From Vulcanimicrobiota bacterium (GTDB taxonomy: Bacteria > Vulcanimicrobiota > Vulcanimicrobiia > Vulcanimicrobiales > Vulcanimicrobiaceae): a stretch of 64,000 nucleotides of DNA. The position numbers were made by a program. This document shows, in pieces, positions 15,387 to 33,300 of the stretch (positions are counted from its first letter, which is position 1; each line of letters begins with the position of its first letter). The stretch spans positions 96,001 through 160,000 of the forward strand of contig OY970223.1 of assembly GCA_963714015.1 (NCBI GenBank). Direction: 5' to 3'.

Positions 15387-18300
15387 ATGCGAAATGGAAA
15401 GTATCCCCAGCATCATGACGACGTAGATCAGCAGCGCGACGTCGGCCAAGAAGCCCGGCAGGCGGTACACCAGCAGCATGAACAGCAGGACGAGTCCCAG
15501 TCCGAGCATCGATGCACGCAGCGACATCGCCAAATCGATCCGTCCCAGCGTCGGCCCGATCGTATCGTTCTCGATGATTACCGGTGGAATGCGTAAGGCG
15601 CCCGAGTTCAGATTGTCGGCAAGCGATATGGTTTCGTCTTGCGTGAATTGTCCTTGAATGATGCCTTGCGAGGAGATCGCCGCTTCAATGACCGGTGCCG
15701 AAAGGTACGTGTGATCCAAGAACATTCCCAGCAGCTTGCCGATGTTTTTGTTCGTGAGATCGTAGAACTTCTTGGGATCCTTCGTCCAGAAGTCGATGGC
15801 GGGATTGCCGGCGGTGTCATAGCCGGCCTGCGCATTGCGCAGATCCTTACCTTCATATACTACGGGGCCGCTGGCCTGATACGCGCCTTCATGATAGTAC
15901 TGGCAGGCCTTGACGTCTTTTGGATTTGCCTTGCAGGCGGCTTCCGCGGCTTCGGCTTTGGCGTTGATGTCGGGCGGAACGATCTTATAGTCCAGAACTG
16001 CAGCCTGTTTAATGGCTTGCTCCGCCTGTTCCGGATTGCTCACATGCGGCAGATCCACCGAGATGCGATCGGTTCCGACTTTGGCGATCTGCGGCTCGGC
16101 AACGCCCAAGCCGTTGATGCGCCGGTCGATCGTGTCCATCGTCTCTTGCTGGATCTCCGGCGTGATCGTCTTGATGTCGCCCGTGGGATTGAGCTGAAGC
16201 AGCAAATGCGCGCCGCCGACGAGGTCCAGTCCCAGATTGATCTTCTTTTGGATCGGTAGGGCAGCCCACAGACTCAGGGCGAGTATTGCCACGACGGCAA
16301 TTGCCTTAACGTAGTTCCTGTACTTGTTCCAGCTCATTGCATACCATAAGAAAAAGCGGTGCCCGCCACATGGGCGGGTCAAACCCTAAGAGTCTAACAG
16401 CCCGGGGTTGGACCGTCAAATTGGGGCCTCTCGGAATTCTCCTAGGCCGCCTGCGGCCCTTGTGCTCCTTCCTTAAAAGGATCATCCTTAACGATTCCGG
16501 CCGGAACGATTCGCACTTCCGAGGGCACCTCGGCATAACTGCAGACGTTCAGACGCAAGCCTGAACGAAGGAAAAAGTCGGCGAGCAACGGGCGAACGGA
16601 TCCCGTGCAGAGCAGCATCCCGTGCCCCTCGGGAAGGGACCGTGCATAGGCCGCAGCTTGGTCGCGGATCCAAAGCGCTGCCTCCGGTTCCACTCCCAGC
16701 GGGCCTGCGTGAAGCGACTCGGCCAGCCGCCGCTCGAGCTCGGGGTCCAGGAGCAGCGGCTCGACCGTCTCGACTCCCCGCCGGCGGAGCTGGGCCGGAA
16801 GCAGCACCTTTCGTGCCGCTTCGGCGAGGTCGCGAGGATCGCGGCTCGTCGCGCAGGCTTCGATCATCGCTTCGAGCACCGCCACCGGGTCGCGCGGCCA
16901 AACGCGCTCTCGAAGAAGCAGGCCGAACGCTTTCTGCACCGCGGCCAGCGGGAGCGCGTCGGTTCCGACTTCTTTTACGACGGTCGGAACGCTGACGCGC
17001 AGATGTTCGAGCAACGTTTGCAATTCTTGCCTACCCAGCAGCACCGCCGCATAGCTGCGGGCGACTTCGGCAAGGTGCGAGCCCGCGACGGAGATCGGAT
17101 CGAATACGAGCGCGCCTTCTTCCAGTGCCGCCTCACGGTGGTCCGGCTCGATCCACTTGGCGTTCAATCCGTAGACAGGCTCGAGCGCGGCAATTCCATC
17201 CAGACGTTCCAGCACCGCGTCGTCGGCGACGGCGAGCATGCGCGTCAGATCCAGCCATCCTTCACCGGCGAGCTCATCGCGAACGCGAATGCCGTAGGTA
17301 TCCGGATCGCGCGCCAGATCGTCGCGCAGTCTCACGCCGGGCAAAACGATACCGATCTCGGCCGCAAGCGCGCGGCGCACTTCACCGACGCGATCGAGCA
17401 GTGCGTCCGCAAGCGGAGGGGCGAGAAGTTGCGCGAGGTTCGCGCCGATTTCGATGCAGACCGCGTCGACGCCGACCAATCCTAACGCGAGTTCCGGACG
17501 GCGAATCGCTTGGCGCTTCGCGAGTTCGCGCTCCTGTCTTGCGCTCTGCAAGACGAACTGATTGCGCTTTTGCGCAAAGTGGGCGGCGGCGAACGCGCAC
17601 GTACCCAAAACGATGAACACCGGCCGAGGCAACGCCGGAACGAGCGCAAGTGCAAAGAGCAGGCCGCCGGCCACCCGCAGGATCTCCGGACGCGCGAAGA
17701 GCTGCGCCGCCAAGTCGGATCCGAGCGAGCCGTCCGAAGCGACGCGAGTGACCATCATGCCCATCGCCGTGGAGATCAAGAACGCGGGCAGCGTCGTGAC
17801 CAGCGCGTTGCCGATGGTAAGCAGGGCATAAGTGCGCAGGGCATCGGACGGCGCCATGCCGTGGTAGACCGCACCCACGATCACACCGCCCGCCAGATTG
17901 AGCGCGACGATGATCAGCGCTGCGATCGCATCGCCCTTCACGAACTTTCCGGCGCCGTCCATTGCGCCGTAAAAATCGGCTTCTCTTTGCACCAATTGGC
18001 GCTTCGCGCGCGCGCCTTCCGCATCGAGAACGCCGGCGTGCACGTCGGCGTCGATGGCCATTTGCTTGCCGGGCATTGCATCGAGCGTGAAGCGCGCGGC
18101 AACCTCGGCGACACGCCCGGAACCGCTCGCGATCACGACGAACTGGATAGTGATGAGGATCGCGAATACGATCAGACCGACGACAAGATTTCCGCGCACG
18201 ACAAACTCGCCGAACGCAGGGATGATCGCGCCGGCGCCTCCGGGTTCGTGACCTTGCGTAAGAATCAAACGCGTTGCGGAAACGTCGAGCGAAAGGCGGA

Positions 18301-30300: not shown

Positions 30301-33300
30301 CAGAGTCGACGAAGACCGCAGCAGTTATCCTCGCAATGCGTCCTCCTTGCGCGGATGTGGTCTCTTCACTCGTATCGCTTCCGCGATCGAGGTCCTGAGC
30401 GGATTTCTCGTAGCGCTTGCCGCCGTCGAAATAGTGCTCGTCTTGAGTGTTTGCCGCGATCGGCAGCGCCGATAAGGGAACGCGCCGAACGTTTCTTCGC
30501 ATCACGCTGCTGCGGTCGTATTCGATGTGCACGCGAACCAATGCCGCTCCCGCTCCAAGCGTCGAATCCAAGGCGCTCTGCAGCGAATGCTGCAAATCCG
30601 AGGCGCCGGCGTCCGATGCTCCTTCCTCCAGCGCAACGCCGCGATCGTCCACGATCTTCACGTTGCGCGGATCGAGTCCGGCAACGCTCGCCGCAACGAA
30701 CGAGCGAACACCGCCGACCGCTTGCGCGGAAAGCCGCGCACCGGGCTGCAGCGTCAATCGCACGCTGGCCGTCGCCGCGCTCGACGCGTCGTCGGCATAA
30801 TACCCTTCCCGCGCCGGAGCGATAATGACGCGCGCATCCTGGATGCCTTGGATTCCGCGCAGACTCAGTTCGATGTCGCCGGCCAAACCGTCACGCGTCT
30901 GGGCGTCAATCACTGATTGTGGGGTTAGCGCGCCCAGTTTCCCAAGAACGTCACTGGTGCCTTGCACATGCGCATGGGGCGTACCCGCCATAGACAGCTT
31001 CAGCAAAAGATCGCTGCGGCGCGCGCCGTCGATGAGCACGTTGTCGGCGGAAGGCGTGAAGGGAACGTTCCAACTCGCTAGGCGTTCTTCGACTTCACCG
31101 AGCTGGTCCGGCTGCAGGGCGCCGGCGAAGAGCGGAACGCGCTGCGAATGCGTTAGAACTCCGGCTGCGATGCTGACGAAGACCAAGGCGATGCAAGCTG
31201 CGGCCGTCAGCTTTCGCGTGCGCGCAGGCAGGGTGTTCCAGCGCGCGAAAAGCGCGGCCGCATCGGTCACCTCGTCATACCTGCATGTTCAGTATCGACG
31301 TCAATGCCTGCGCGGTGCGTCCGGCGGCGGCGCTCGCAACCGACAGTGCGACGTCTGCGCGGGCACGCTCGTACACTGCGGTTTGAAGATCGCCGGCACC
31401 CGACGCGAATGCATCTTCGGCGCCCTGCGCCGTCGTGAAAACCGATCCGAGATCATCGAGCAGTTTGCCGAATGCACTTGCGTCCGAGGCGTGCAGAGGA
31501 GCAGCCGTTTCCGGAGCATCGGGGAGCAGATTTTCGATCCTCATCAGCTTGCCCATGTCGATCGTGCGCTCGGCCAGGCGTTTTCCGGCGTCGAAAACCG
31601 AAGCGTTCGCTTCGTATGCCCGCGTGGCATTGAGCACCGCCACCATCTCAGTGAGAACGTCGACGCTGGACCCGCGATCGACGTGCGCGCCCGCGTAGAC
31701 CACTTGCGGTGATCGGCCGTCGGCTTGCACGAGCCGAAAATCCGCAATCAAACGCGGATAAGAGCCTTTGGGTCCCGCCGCTTCGGCTGCCGCGACGTTC
31801 CGCGCCTCCACGTCCAATGCGGCGCGTTGTGCGTCCATTCCGCTTGCGGCGGTCGCAAGCAAACCGAGGCTATCCATTGCGCCGACCGCGATACGCTGCT
31901 ACATTCAACATAGCGTTTAGGGTAGTGCGCGAATATGGCAAACAAAGATCGCAATGATTTCCGGAGTATGACCTCGACGTCGATCTTATTCTTAATGGGT
32001 GTGCTGCTTCTGGGCTGTAACGTGCAGCACCGTGGAGTCACGGGGCAAGCGACACCTGAGAAGCGGAGTGTCATCGCGCCGAACGGCGTGCATTGCACCG
32101 GATTCATGGGATCGAAGCCGGGTTACAGTTGTTATGAAAGAATTGCACGCCGGCCCGGTGTGCGGTGCAGCGGTTATGTGGATCCGGGAAGCAATGCGGC
32201 GTTACCACCCCCGCCCGCCATCTACAGCGTACGCGATATTGGAAAGGCGGGCGTCCCGAGGTTAACACCAACGCAATTGCGCAGCGTAAGGATGATCGAG
32301 GGCGCATTCGGCAGCGCCCACCTTCAGTTCGTGCTGCTGCCCGAGCGGGCCGAGTTGGTAGTATTCAACGCCACTCGAGGCGTATGCGCGAATTGGGCGG
32401 GCGGTTATCCGTTGCTGAATGACAATCCGGACGGCCGGCGCTTCTATGAGCCCGGCGACAATCCATACACCACGCTTACGGCGCCCGACTAGACGGCCTT
32501 CATCGCGCAGCGCTCTTGATCTCCGCAAGCCGCGCGTGCACCGCATTCAGGAGCGCCTCGGTGAAAACGGCTCTTTCAGCGACTTGCGCCATCGCCTGGT
32601 CCGTGCGCGGGCCGCCGAACGGCGTTTGCGCGCGAGCCGTCCGGGAAGCGGCGCCCGCAAGATCGTCTTTAGCGGTGCTCAAGGCGCTCTCGAGCGTATT
32701 TGCAATGTCGAACATTGGGTCAGCATGGGCGCGGAGTATTTCCGCGCAATTGGCGAAAGATTGCCGCATGGGCAAATCGCGGTTCGAGGCGGCATCCGAC
32801 GGCGTGTTCGCCATTGCAGTCACCCTCCTGGTCCTGGGGCTGAGCGTGCCGGTCTTGCGCCGTCCCACGGACGAAACGCTCGCGTCGGCGCTGTTGAATC
32901 TCCGGCTGAATTTCGTGGCTTATGCATTGAGCTTCGCGGTCATCGGCATTATGTGGAACAACCACCAGATGCTGTTCCGCACGGTGGTCAAGCTGGACCG
33001 CACGACGTGGCTGCTCAATTTGCTGCTTCTCGGGATCACCGCGTTCATTCCGTTTTCTACAGCGGTCCTGGGCAGTTATCCGCTGCTGCGCCCGGCGGAT
33101 CTGCTCTATGGTTTGACGCTGACCGCCGCGTCGATTACGTACAACGCACTGCTTCATTACCTCATCGCGCATAATGCCTTTTCGGCCGCAATCAACCGCA
33201 GCGCCATAACGCAAACGGTCTTTCACTATCGGGTCGGATTGGTCGTCTATCTCGCCGCTACGCTCATATCGTTCGCCGCACCGGCGGCTAAGCTTCGTGC

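Follow-up and report, generated by a model that had tools for sequence, protein, structure and literature searches.

Besides a complete flagellar regulon, which we could verify elsewhere in the genome, a soil bacterium of the Vulcanimicrobiota carries a separate set of flagellum-type export genes. This raises the question of whether the locus encodes a second flagellum, the remains of one, or a machine with another role. The stretch of DNA analyzed here, 64,000 nt long, is referred to as the window. Pfam and NCBIfam profile searches confirmed the gene content proposed by the initial annotation and showed the cluster to be larger than first described. Its apparatus genes, all on the minus strand, span 16442-32715 (Table 1); the start is as originally given, and the upstream end, formerly set at 31877, is moved outward by the gene for a 71-aa protein. 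FlhA, FlhB, FliR, FliQ, FliP, FliN, the ATPase, FliH, FliF with a FliG middle domain, FlgC and FliE are encoded. Two unrelated genes (a phosphoesterase and a frameshifted MTHFR) sit within the span, and further apparatus parts are encoded beyond the window. No FliJ or FliO homologues were seen in the cluster, including upstream of fliP, where there is no FliO gene. Neither stator genes nor the torque-generating FliG C-terminal domain were detected in it with Pfam, and no secretin gene lies within or adjoining it. The genome also has an extra flagellin gene besides its flagellar regulon.

Table 1 Features of the cluster, with positions counted along the window
Feature	Positions	Strand	Profile matches	Remarks
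FlhA/SctV-type export-gate protein, 687 aa	16442-18505	-	PF00771 (E 8e-199)	
FlhB/SctU-type switch protein	18502-19497	-	PF01312 (E 8e-75)	
FliR-like protein	19499-20248	-	PF01311 (E 4e-30), residues 74-294 of long ORF	Start approximate; ORF extends to 20428, orthologues align from about residue 58, true start later
FliQ-like protein, about 89 aa	20215-20484	-	PF01313 (E 5e-19), residues 95-159 of long ORF	Start approximate; ORF extends to 20745, orthologues 88-89 aa
Phosphoesterase	20390-21931	+	PF04185 (E 8.5e-53)	Inserted gene, not apparatus
MTHFR	21941-22850	-	PF02219, 1-160 and 163-285 in the two ORFs	Split by a frameshift; between fliP and fliQ
FliP-like protein, 218 aa	22862-23518	-	PF00813 (E 2e-71)	
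FliN, 94 aa	23552-23836	-	PF01052 (E 5e-25)	SpoA domain
FliM-like protein, 262 aa	23846-24634	-	FliMN_C	CheC-fold middle domain, C-terminal SpoA domain
FlgE/F/G-family axial protein, about 240 aa	24631-25347	-	PF22692 (D1 domain only)	Hook-gene slot; long ORF reaches 25455, orthologues begin at its residue 37
FliK/SctP-like ruler and substrate-specificity-switch protein, 186 aa	25341-25901	-		Fold match
Aspartic protease	25947-27593	-	PF13650/PF13975	Accessory; two DTG lobes; start approximate, long ORF 25947-27731
Lytic transglycosylase (SLT)	27511-28098	-	PF01464 (E 2e-30)	Accessory
FliI/SctN-type ATPase	28103-29335	-	PF00006 (E 2e-58)	
FliH/SctL-like protein	29332-29811	-	PF02108 (E 1.6e-7)	
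FliF (with YscJ_FliF_C part) fused to FliG middle domain	29804-31270	-	PF01514, PF08345, PF14841	
FlgC-like and FliE-like	31275-31877	-	PF06429 (FlgC_C), PF02049	Single ORF here
Conserved 71-aa protein	32500-32715	-		FlgB gene-order slot; outside the span first noted

To assess how far the cluster proteins have diverged, we compared them with the flagellar paralogues of the same genome. The identities claimed earlier were reproduced by tblastn: 36% for FlhA, 30% for FlhB, 27% for FliR, 31% for FliQ, about 47% (46.5%) for FliP, 40% for the ATPase and 27% for FliF. Among five non-flagellated relatives, FlhA is 68-73% identical. The NCBIfam scores were identical to those first reported for FlhA (626.3 bits with TIGR01398 versus 492.2 with SctV, neither reaching its cut-off), FliP (228.1 with TIGR01103 versus 180.4 with SctR) and the ATPase (346.9 with SctN versus 332.3 with FliI). 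For FlhB, the SctU profile again scored above the FlhB profile, although with other figures (218.9 and 189.2 bits rather than 211.7 and 180.0). All families had been said to fall below the equivalog cut-offs; most do, but FliP (cut-off 217.45) and FliN (101.8 bits with TIGR02480) exceed theirs. The ATPase retains its Walker A, GERGRE and Walker B motifs, and FlhB the autocleavage motif NPTH at residue 249. In both genus-g4 relatives this motif reads NPHH or NPEH and the ATPase ORF is shorter by about 60 N-terminal residues; judging from these sequence changes, genus g4 may have a weaker system or one that operates in another way.

Two proteins were assigned by predicted fold. The initial annotation counted two FliN/SctQ-like proteins and no FliM, but the AlphaFold2 (AF2) model of the 262-aa one (pLDDT 80.9) has the fold of FliM: Foldseek matched it best to FliM chains from Salmonella C-rings (E 5e-10) and to crystal structures of the FliM middle domain. 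Complex prediction paired this protein with the FliG middle-domain tail of FliF at a score of 0.69 (best control 0.01), and the score mark applied is attained by 116 of 157 complexes of solved structure but by just 2 of 215 mismatched pairs. Three runs shared at least 97% of contacts, with partner pLDDT of at least 78; because solved FliG-FliM complexes exist, the predicted contact indicates likeness only. The FliF-FliG fusion itself is conserved, with all three domains in 119 of the 120 best homologues listed (one lacks PF14841) and also in the G177 orthologue. For the second protein, of 186 aa, none of 573 homologues is assigned to a Pfam family, and 15 of 47 homologues match PF02120 weakly. 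In its AF2 model the C-terminal domain (pLDDT about 90) is by fold a FliK/SctP ruler-switch domain, the sole Foldseek matches at E <= 0.001 being FliK-C (2rrl) and the PscP switch domain (5cuk).

The axial parts differ from the first description. The absence of a hook gene is now doubtful, because a FlgE/F/G-family gene occupies the hook slot in the gene order; its product is roughly equally distant from FlgG, FlgE and FlgF. The FlgC-FliE fusion described earlier occurs in this genome only: the two are separate, overlapping genes in all five relatives examined, and one base at the junction accounts for the difference. The 71-aa protein has no Pfam match. Its orthologues in five relatives (70-72 aa, 41-63% identical) lie directly upstream of flgC, and in the ESM Atlas it falls into clusters of its own, with 324, 239 and 73 members; FlgB is the only named family among its ESM Atlas matches, at 0.85, which we treat as a lead only. 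About 180 kb from the cluster are a FlgF/FlgG-like pair and a FliA-like sigma factor.

Accessory and inserted genes are more variable. The aspartic protease (DTG at residues 341 and 470) was found in G036, G143, G208 and G055 but not in G097 or G177; both genus-g4 genomes examined lack it. Its N-terminus has a hydrophobic, Sec-type signal-like segment, judged by eye. Given this segment and the absence of the protease from one genus, it is unlikely to be a substrate of the system, contrary to the earlier suggestion that it is perhaps the cargo. The SLT gene is present in G097, G177, G036, G055 and G134 and was not found in G143 or G208. The phosphoesterase has no full-length match in five relatives of family f1, and G208 has one 54-residue match. 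MTHFR is intact (299 aa) at the same place in all five family relatives and is not at that place in the sister family.

The distribution of the cluster bears directly on its relation to the flagellum. A second basal body that draws on genes at other loci for its hook, filament, stator and rings, and thus a second motility organelle, might be suspected from the flagellar type of the parts and from the full regulon and extra flagellin gene of this genome. However, the cluster lacks the FliG torque domain and stator genes, and in five closed genomes that carry it, neither flagellin (over the cut-off) nor FliG_C nor FlgI was found (0/5 each). Gene order is conserved in these five genomes, and each has exactly two rod genes, which are adjacent. 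Cluster-type FlhA (about 70% identical) is the sole FlhA match in many family genomes and occurs without FliG_C in 31 of 53 well-assembled ones. FliG_C is found in none of 26 further genomes with only cluster-type FlhA and in all 22 with two FlhA matches; the four sister-order genomes with cluster-type FlhA also lack it. Excerpts of the description of the phylum's one cultured member report neither flagella nor a flagellin gene. We therefore regard a second motility organelle as extremely improbable.

A flagellar operon that was duplicated, lost its function and is now decaying would fit the very long stem branch (1.2-2.2 substitutions per site), the scores below cut-off for all but FliP and FliN, and the absence of the system from some complete genomes. 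An FlhA match is absent in 16 of 296 family genomes, six of them 95-100% complete, so the system is dispensable. On the other hand, intact ORFs in the same order are seen in six more genomes, which represent three families and include five without a flagellum as well as a sister family; at least 120 homologues each are listed for FliF and the FliK-like and FliM-like proteins, most FlhA matches listed are free of internal stops, and the Walker, GERGRE and NPTH motifs are retained. Decay is thus very unlikely. The cluster is a separate, filament-less flagellar-type type III secretion system (T3SS), kept class-wide even without FliG_C, flagellin or a P-ring gene, as initially proposed. This retention contradicts both alternatives named at that stage, a basal body that borrows hook and filament and a relic. 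Independence from the flagellum is well supported, and because many non-flagellated relatives keep the machine, its role is most likely other than swimming.

On balance, we favor a pared-down version of the flagellar hook-basal body that does not rotate, works alone, without a flagellum, and probably serves protein export. FliF would form an MS ring bearing the covalently attached FliG middle domain, which would dock the FliM-like protein and FliN; together they would make up a cytoplasmic ring that generates no torque, or a sorting platform. Substrates would be delivered by FliH and the ATPase to the FlhA/FlhB/FliPQR gate. We infer that the first exports would be the machine's own axial parts (the FlgB-slot protein, FlgC, FliE, the remote FlgF/FlgG-like pair and the FlgE/F/G-family protein), with the lytic transglycosylase opening the wall. 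The short FliK-like ruler would then switch FlhB to a second substrate class. Such non-structural proteins would likely reach the periplasm or cell surface, because no P-ring gene was found in the five genomes and no secretin gene lies in or beside the cluster. It counts against this reading that we identified neither a substrate nor a chaperone nor a conduit through the outer membrane. We found no published description of this system in the literature. Non-flagellated Lysobacter enzymogenes, whose flagellar T3SS is described in excerpted reports as exporting non-flagellar proteins, offers a precedent.

The machine might instead be built for a main purpose other than cargo export: it could act as a checkpoint on the linked FliA-like sigma factor, modulate type IV pili, as is reported for Lysobacter, or support some other envelope structure. 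In two relatives the rod pair directly adjoins a FliA/WhiG-like sigma gene, and genomes without a flagellum retain such a gene. Excerpts of the respective publications describe movement by type IV pili in the cultured relative and an influence of flagellar T3SS genes on twitching in Lysobacter. Yet FlgM-like anti-sigma genes were found in just one of the five genomes without a flagellum, and a scaffold would need less than a complete ATPase complex with a ruler and a cleavable FlhB. We consider such a role unlikely.

Six trees disagree on the placement of the cluster proteins. In a five-protein LG+G4 tree they stand beside the injectisome rows (support 48), as they do in a 22-row subset under a mixture model (support 95), and a mixture-model FlhA tree places them outside the main flagellar clade. 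Together with the slightly higher SctU and SctN scores, this would suit an early offshoot of the lineage leading to the injectisome rather than an independent flagellar derivative. A 36-row five-protein mixture-model tree, however, nests the cluster within flagellar systems of Actinomycetota and Chloroflexota (supports 96 and 99), and a 102-row FlhA tree has it in one group with the flagellar FlhA of this genome (support 98). Both cluster and injectisome rows are long-branched, and long branches tend to attract. The cluster also keeps middle domains of FliM and FliG, a FliF that includes its YscJ_FliF_C part, and FlgC and FliE, flagellum-specific markers in excerpts of Abby and Rocha 2012. We regard the offshoot as conceivable but doubtful; because placement shifts with model and sampling, an origin independent of the injectisome is only a possibility. 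Gene content and gene order are flagellar.

Among known systems, the flagellar hook-basal body shares the families of the gate, ATPase complex, MS ring, FliM/FliN, FliK, FlgC, FliE and FlgF/G. The cluster order matches the genome's flagellar locus, FliF-(FliG)-FliH-FliI ... FliK-(FlgD)-FlgE ... FliM-FliN-(FliO)-FliP-FliQ-FliR-FlhB-FlhA, and presumably also the Bacillus subtilis fla/che operon. Unlike the flagellum, the cluster lacks flagellin, cap, junction proteins, FlgD, the FliG N- and C-terminal domains, stator, FliO, FliJ and L/P-ring genes. Its FliG is cut to the middle domain and fused to FliF, its ruler is short (186 aa, whereas the flagellar FliK of this genome has 492 aa), and it occurs in non-flagellated genomes. 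Buchnera, the aphid symbiont, has filament-less basal bodies proposed to be protein exporters. These arose by reduction of the sole flagellar system in a shrinking symbiont genome, whereas the cluster is a conserved second system in free-living bacteria.

Like the injectisome and, as excerpted, the 'needleless' T3SS* of Myxococcus (PMC12075869), the cluster is a T3SS detached from motility, and like the secretin-less Myxococcales form (excerpts of Abby and Rocha 2012) it includes neither a secretin gene nor a needle gene. In contrast to the injectisome, it lacks SctD, SctI/SctF and SctC, has FliF in its long form together with the rod proteins FlgC and FliE of the flagellum, and is never nested in the sampled injectisome clade (Myxococcota and Chlamydiota rows included). 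Lysobacter enzymogenes OH11 likewise has a flagellar-type export apparatus without a filament, for which excerpted accounts report non-flagellar export and an effect on twitching. However, the OH11 set comprises its only, residual flagellar genes, whereas the cluster encodes a distinct paralogous system, strongly diverged and with a reduced architecture of its own, which some genomes have alongside a full flagellum.

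We identified the genes of the second, filament-less flagellar-type type III secretion system (T3SS; hereafter the cluster) by Pfam and NCBIfam searches of its ORFs, in a genome that is closed as a single contig of 3.56 Mb and of which the window covers 96001-160000. From its upstream end the cluster runs FlgB-slot gene, FlgC, FliE, FliF with the FliG middle domain (FliG_M), FliH, ATPase (then SLT transglycosylase and protease), FliK-like, FlgE/F/G-like, FliM-like, FliN, FliP (then MTHFR), FliQ, FliR, FlhB and FlhA. With the assignments as revised here, it is collinear with the genome's own flagellar locus. 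The T3SS genes of the cluster are all unbroken in this genome. Directly downstream of flhA, on the same strand, lie secD and secF, as they do in all seven genomes in which this end was read (the loci L008-L011, L014 and L025 of relatives in addition to the window). Upstream, a DUF3810 gene and an adjoining 298-aa ORF are conserved in five relatives (L008-L011 and L014).

Features of the cluster and its flanks, with related genes elsewhere in this genome and in relatives (window positions unless a prefix says otherwise; L-numbers are loci)
Feature	Coordinates	Strand	Identified by
secD + secF	13641-16382	-	
FlhA	16442-18505	-	Pfam, NCBIfam
FlhB	18502-19497	-	Pfam, NCBIfam
FliR, FliQ	after FlhB in coordinate order	-	Pfam, NCBIfam
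Phosphoesterase, unrelated to the apparatus, inside the span	20390-21931	+	
MTHFR, unrelated to the apparatus, inside the span, broken into two ORFs (frameshift)	21941-22850	-	
FliP	22862-23518	-	Pfam, NCBIfam
FliN	23552-23836	-	Pfam, NCBIfam
262-aa protein with FliMN_C domain	23846-24634	-	Pfam, NCBIfam
FlgE/F/G D1 domain as sole domain	24631-25455	-	Pfam, NCBIfam
186-aa ORF, FliK/SctP-like (from its model)	25341-25901	-	
Aspartic protease	25947-27731	-	Pfam, NCBIfam
SLT transglycosylase	27511-28098	-	Pfam, NCBIfam
FliI/SctN ATPase	28103-29335	-	Pfam, NCBIfam
FliH	29332-29811	-	Pfam, NCBIfam
FliF + FliG middle domain	29804-31270	-	Pfam, NCBIfam
ORF joining FlgC C-terminus to FliE	31275-31877	-	Pfam, NCBIfam
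Gap holding 185-aa plus-strand ORF	31878-32499		
71-aa gene, FlgB slot	32500-32715		
DUF3810 gene	33323-34567	-	
Rod gene pair	genome 308.6-310.0 kb		
Second FliA-like gene	genome 1932.6 kb		
Split flagellar flhA	genome 1979277-1981305 (L003:14277-16305)		
Split flagellin gene	genome 2835720-2836131		
Lone extra flagellin gene	genome 3463824-3465221 (L007:7824-9221)		
Genus-g4 ATPase ORFs	L008:12767-13810, L009:12262-13320		
Genus-g4 FlhB	L008:6238-7245, L009:5735-6748		
Intact MTHFR of relatives	L008:8267-9166, L009:7754-8653, L010:12314-13213, L014:8356-9255		

The initial annotation counted two FliN-like proteins and no FliM. One of the two is indeed FliN, whereas the other, the 262-aa protein, is FliM-like as judged from its structure model (pLDDT 80.9), for which Foldseek retrieves FliM chains from Salmonella C-ring structures (E 5e-10) as well as crystal structures of the FliM middle domain. 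Its fold and domain order, with a SpoA domain after a CheC-like middle domain, are those by which FliM is recognized; it has no match to PF02154, the Pfam profile of FliM. This protein is the predicted docking site of the FliG_M tail that FliF carries (score 0.69, best control 0.01), with at least 97% of contacts agreeing between runs and a partner pLDDT of at least 78. The docking mark is reached by 116 of 157 solved complexes as against 2 of 215 mismatched pairs, and because FliG-FliM complexes have already been solved, passing it speaks for likeness rather than for binding.

The 186-aa ORF is, again from its model, a FliK/SctP-like ruler-switch protein. The AlphaFold model is confident over the C-terminal 80 residues, residues 39-96 are a disordered stretch, and just two Foldseek matches reach E <= 0.001: the FliK C-terminal domain (2rrl, E 1.9e-4) and the substrate-specificity-switch domain of PscP (5cuk, E 2.8e-4, TM 0.64, rmsd 3.0 over 84 columns). 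The protein thereby shows the C-terminal fold that defines T3S4 proteins. Homologues of it, about 180 aa long, number 573; a Pfam family is recorded for none of the 120 listed, and the FliK C-terminal profile PF02120 is matched weakly by 15 of 47. Profile comparison of this family with the genome's single FliK gave no match (probability 0.2).

At the upstream end, a conserved gene of 70-72 aa lies directly before flgC in five relatives, and its 71-aa counterpart here falls outside the span first annotated. The 71-aa protein has no Pfam match, even at E 5. In the ESM Atlas it belongs to clusters of its own, mostly from Vulcanimicrobiota, and FlgB is the only named family among the matches (0.85); its position and this weak match are a lead, and only a lead, towards FlgB. 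The gap of about 0.6 kb between this gene and flgC occurs in this genome only, and its 185-aa ORF has no Pfam match. Directly before flgC stands a short remnant similar to the 71-aa gene's opening codons, which suggests an insertion with a duplicated junction. The FlgC-FliE fusion, initially taken as a feature of the system, turns out to be particular to this genome: FlgC and FliE are two overlapping genes in five out of five relatives, and a one-base difference at the junction, a frameshift, sets this genome apart. The FlgE/F/G-family protein, whose position is that of the hook gene in the flagellar order, shows about the same closeness to FlgG, FlgE and FlgF. Two more rod genes far from the cluster are 39% and 34% identical to flagellar FlgG and FlgF. 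About 2.4 kb from this pair lies a FliA/WhiG-like sigma gene (112.7 bits, cut-off 189.6), and a second FliA-like gene is found about 16 kb from the flagellar locus.

A flagellar-type T3SS is recognized by homologues of the core genes sctJNQRSTUV together with the rod genes flgB, flgC and fliE (Abby and Rocha 2012). All eight core families are present in the cluster (FliF, ATPase, FliN/FliM-like, FliP, FliQ, FliR, FlhB and FlhA; Pfam and NCBIfam), and the flagellum-specific rod genes are represented by FlgC-like and FliE-like proteins, which Pfam detects in two relatives as well as in this genome. Pfam found no flagellin, hook-filament junction protein or cap in the cluster. The parts that would generate torque, the FliG C-terminal domain (FliG_C) and a MotA/MotB stator, are likewise missing from the cluster by Pfam, which holds FliG_M alone, fused to FliF. 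As first annotated, no secretin (SctC) lies in or beside the cluster, and the eight secretin matches in the genome are all away from it; a secretin belongs to all injectisome-type systems (NF-T3SS) but the Myxococcales forms. SctD, SctI and SctF, which are small and divergent, had no Pfam or NCBIfam match among the cluster ORFs, with no genome-wide search by profiles made for them. Nothing was found to carry the channel across the outer membrane.

The apparatus could depend on hook and filament genes encoded elsewhere, as the initial annotation had allowed. This genome does carry the full flagellar regulon reported there (FliF, G, I, J and K; FlgD and E; MotA and B; FliM, N, O, P and R; FlhA; FliD; flagellin; FlgK; FlgI, H, A, G and F; FliE; FlgC), and the paralogue identities and NCBIfam scores given with it were reproduced. 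The relatives argue against such dependence. We searched 401 genomes of the phylum (15 flagged unpublished) with the cluster FlhA and found a match in 381; within the same family, many genomes show just one FlhA match, about 70% identical. Among genomes with <= 10 contigs we picked 57 by hand, a non-exhaustive set of 53 from the window's family (31 with one FlhA match, 22 with two) and four from the sister order (one match each). All 22 two-match genomes had FliG_C; the 31 single-match family genomes and the four sister-order genomes had none, which makes 0 of 35 genomes with the cluster FlhA only. The 31 include five closed single-contig genomes from four genera. All five keep the cluster, and none has FlgI or a flagellin over the cut-off (there was one sub-threshold match). 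In each, the rod genes number exactly two, side by side and about 100 kb away from the cluster.

For gene order we read five closed genomes of non-flagellated relatives: G208 and four of the five just named. The order is identical in all of them, at protein identities to this genome of 33% to 79%. The sister family (L025) has the same order without MTHFR, which is missing from its position between fliP and fliQ there and is intact (299 aa) at that position in five of five family relatives examined. In the one sister-order genome examined, the FlgC-to-SLT part alone occurs within the 20-kb stretch read. Cluster-type FliF aligns at full length in the sister family and the sister order (42% and 38% identical), and gave no full-length alignment in two genomes of other classes examined. 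The FlhA match is missing from 16 of 296 family genomes, six of which are 95-100% complete, so the system can be lost. According to its published description, the cultured member of the phylum is Gram-negative with an outer membrane and has neither flagella nor a flagellin gene; a fliN gene appears in its published gene table.

In this genome, the flagellar loci were read by greedy longest-ORF calling after a GC3-based caller failed to separate real from spurious ORFs, so some small flagellar genes were missed or put on the wrong strand. The flagellar flhA is split into two frames inside its PGKQMAIDAD motif and one flagellin gene is split; the completeness score of the closed genome is 89.6%. 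The breaks in MTHFR, flagellar flhA and flagellin could be assembly or sequencing errors or real decay, for the latter two a decay of the flagellar system. A lone extra flagellin gene (465 aa) lies far from the flagellar loci.

The accessory genes vary among relatives. SLT is present in five and was not found in two. The protease has two DTG lobes and, read by eye from its sequence, a hydrophobic signal-like N-terminal stretch; four relatives have it, and both genomes examined of genus-g4, a genus of the window's family, lack the protease. Its proposed role as exported cargo was dropped on account of this N-terminus and these absences. These two genus-g4 genomes also have an ATPase ORF short of about 60 N-terminal residues and an FlhB motif that reads NPHH or NPEH rather than NPTH.

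A search of 1.84 billion representatives (50% clustering) yielded just three FlhAs that stand out from ordinary ones. One, P0124, is 48% identical and falls inside the cluster's clade; it comes from a 27.9-kb contig of a MAG named as 'Candidatus Binatus sp.', and represents either an occurrence of the system outside the phylum or a mis-binned contig. Another, at 43% identity, sits in a gene row of the ordinary flagellar kind. P0123, which FlhA trees place as sister to the clade, was set aside as an ordinary flagellar gene; a relative of it on a 5-kb rumen contig stands in a fliP-Q-R-flhB-flhA row, in which FlhB, FliQ and FliR more closely resemble the flagellar paralogues.

Trees were quick searches without bootstraps, using named injectisome SctV and flagellar FlhA references. 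For FlhA, FastTree (155 rows) placed the clade basally on the flagellar side; IQ-TREE under LG+G4 (102 rows) nested it with the genome's own flagellar FlhA, Chloroflexota, Actinomycetota and Armatimonadota (support 98); and an LG+C20 mixture (69 rows) placed it outside the main flagellar clade (support 98) and apart from injectisome rows, including Myxococcota and Chlamydiota. For the five gate proteins together (1581 columns), LG+G4 on 36 rows put the clade beside injectisome rows (support 48). The LG+C20 mixture on the same 36 rows made it sister to Actinomycetota flagellar systems (support 96) within a clade of Actinomycetota and Chloroflexota (support 99), and on 22 rows put it beside injectisome rows (support 95). 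The core proteins thus stand beside sampled NF-T3SS rows in two trees and nest within them in none. Every tree recovers the clade as monophyletic and leaves it outside the clade of sampled injectisomes; its sister group varies with model and sampling. The clade's stem is 1.2-2.2 substitutions per site long, and long-branch attraction may act in either direction. In gene content, FlgC, FliE, FlgF/G, the middle domains of FliM and FliG and the long form of FliF all point to a flagellar source. FlgB, FlgC and FliE are flagellum-specific markers in Abby and Rocha 2012.

With the parts and folds as described, the order of assembly, the substrate switch and the export of cargo would proceed by analogy with known flagellar and injectisome assembly, from which we infer them. 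We tentatively suggest, as a possibility somewhat short of even, that a flagellum has been converted into a secretion machine independently for a third time: most Vulcanimicrobiia, a widespread soil lineage, would have a 'mini hook-basal body', spanning the periplasm and measured by a ruler, whose exported proteins would reach the envelope, the medium or neighbouring cells, and it would go back to a flagellar operon of the Terrabacteria type by a route separate from that of the injectisome. The textbook example of a flagellum that became a secretion device is the injectisome, generally treated as one event. The cluster adds a second machine of flagellum type, conserved and reduced, from another phylum. 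As a natural experiment, it would indicate which flagellar parts export alone needs, namely the gate, the ATPase, a torque-less FliG_M-FliM-FliN ring, the rod and the ruler. If its origin is independent, such a conversion is repeatable. Once the cluster is confirmed in the phylum's non-flagellated cultured strain, structure and cargo could be tested directly there. A full-text literature search, covering sources other than bioRxiv supplements and subscription journals, found no published description of the system. The nearest studied cases are the flagellar T3SS kept by non-flagellated Lysobacter and the secretin-less T3SS of Myxococcales (Abby and Rocha 2012; PMC12075869).
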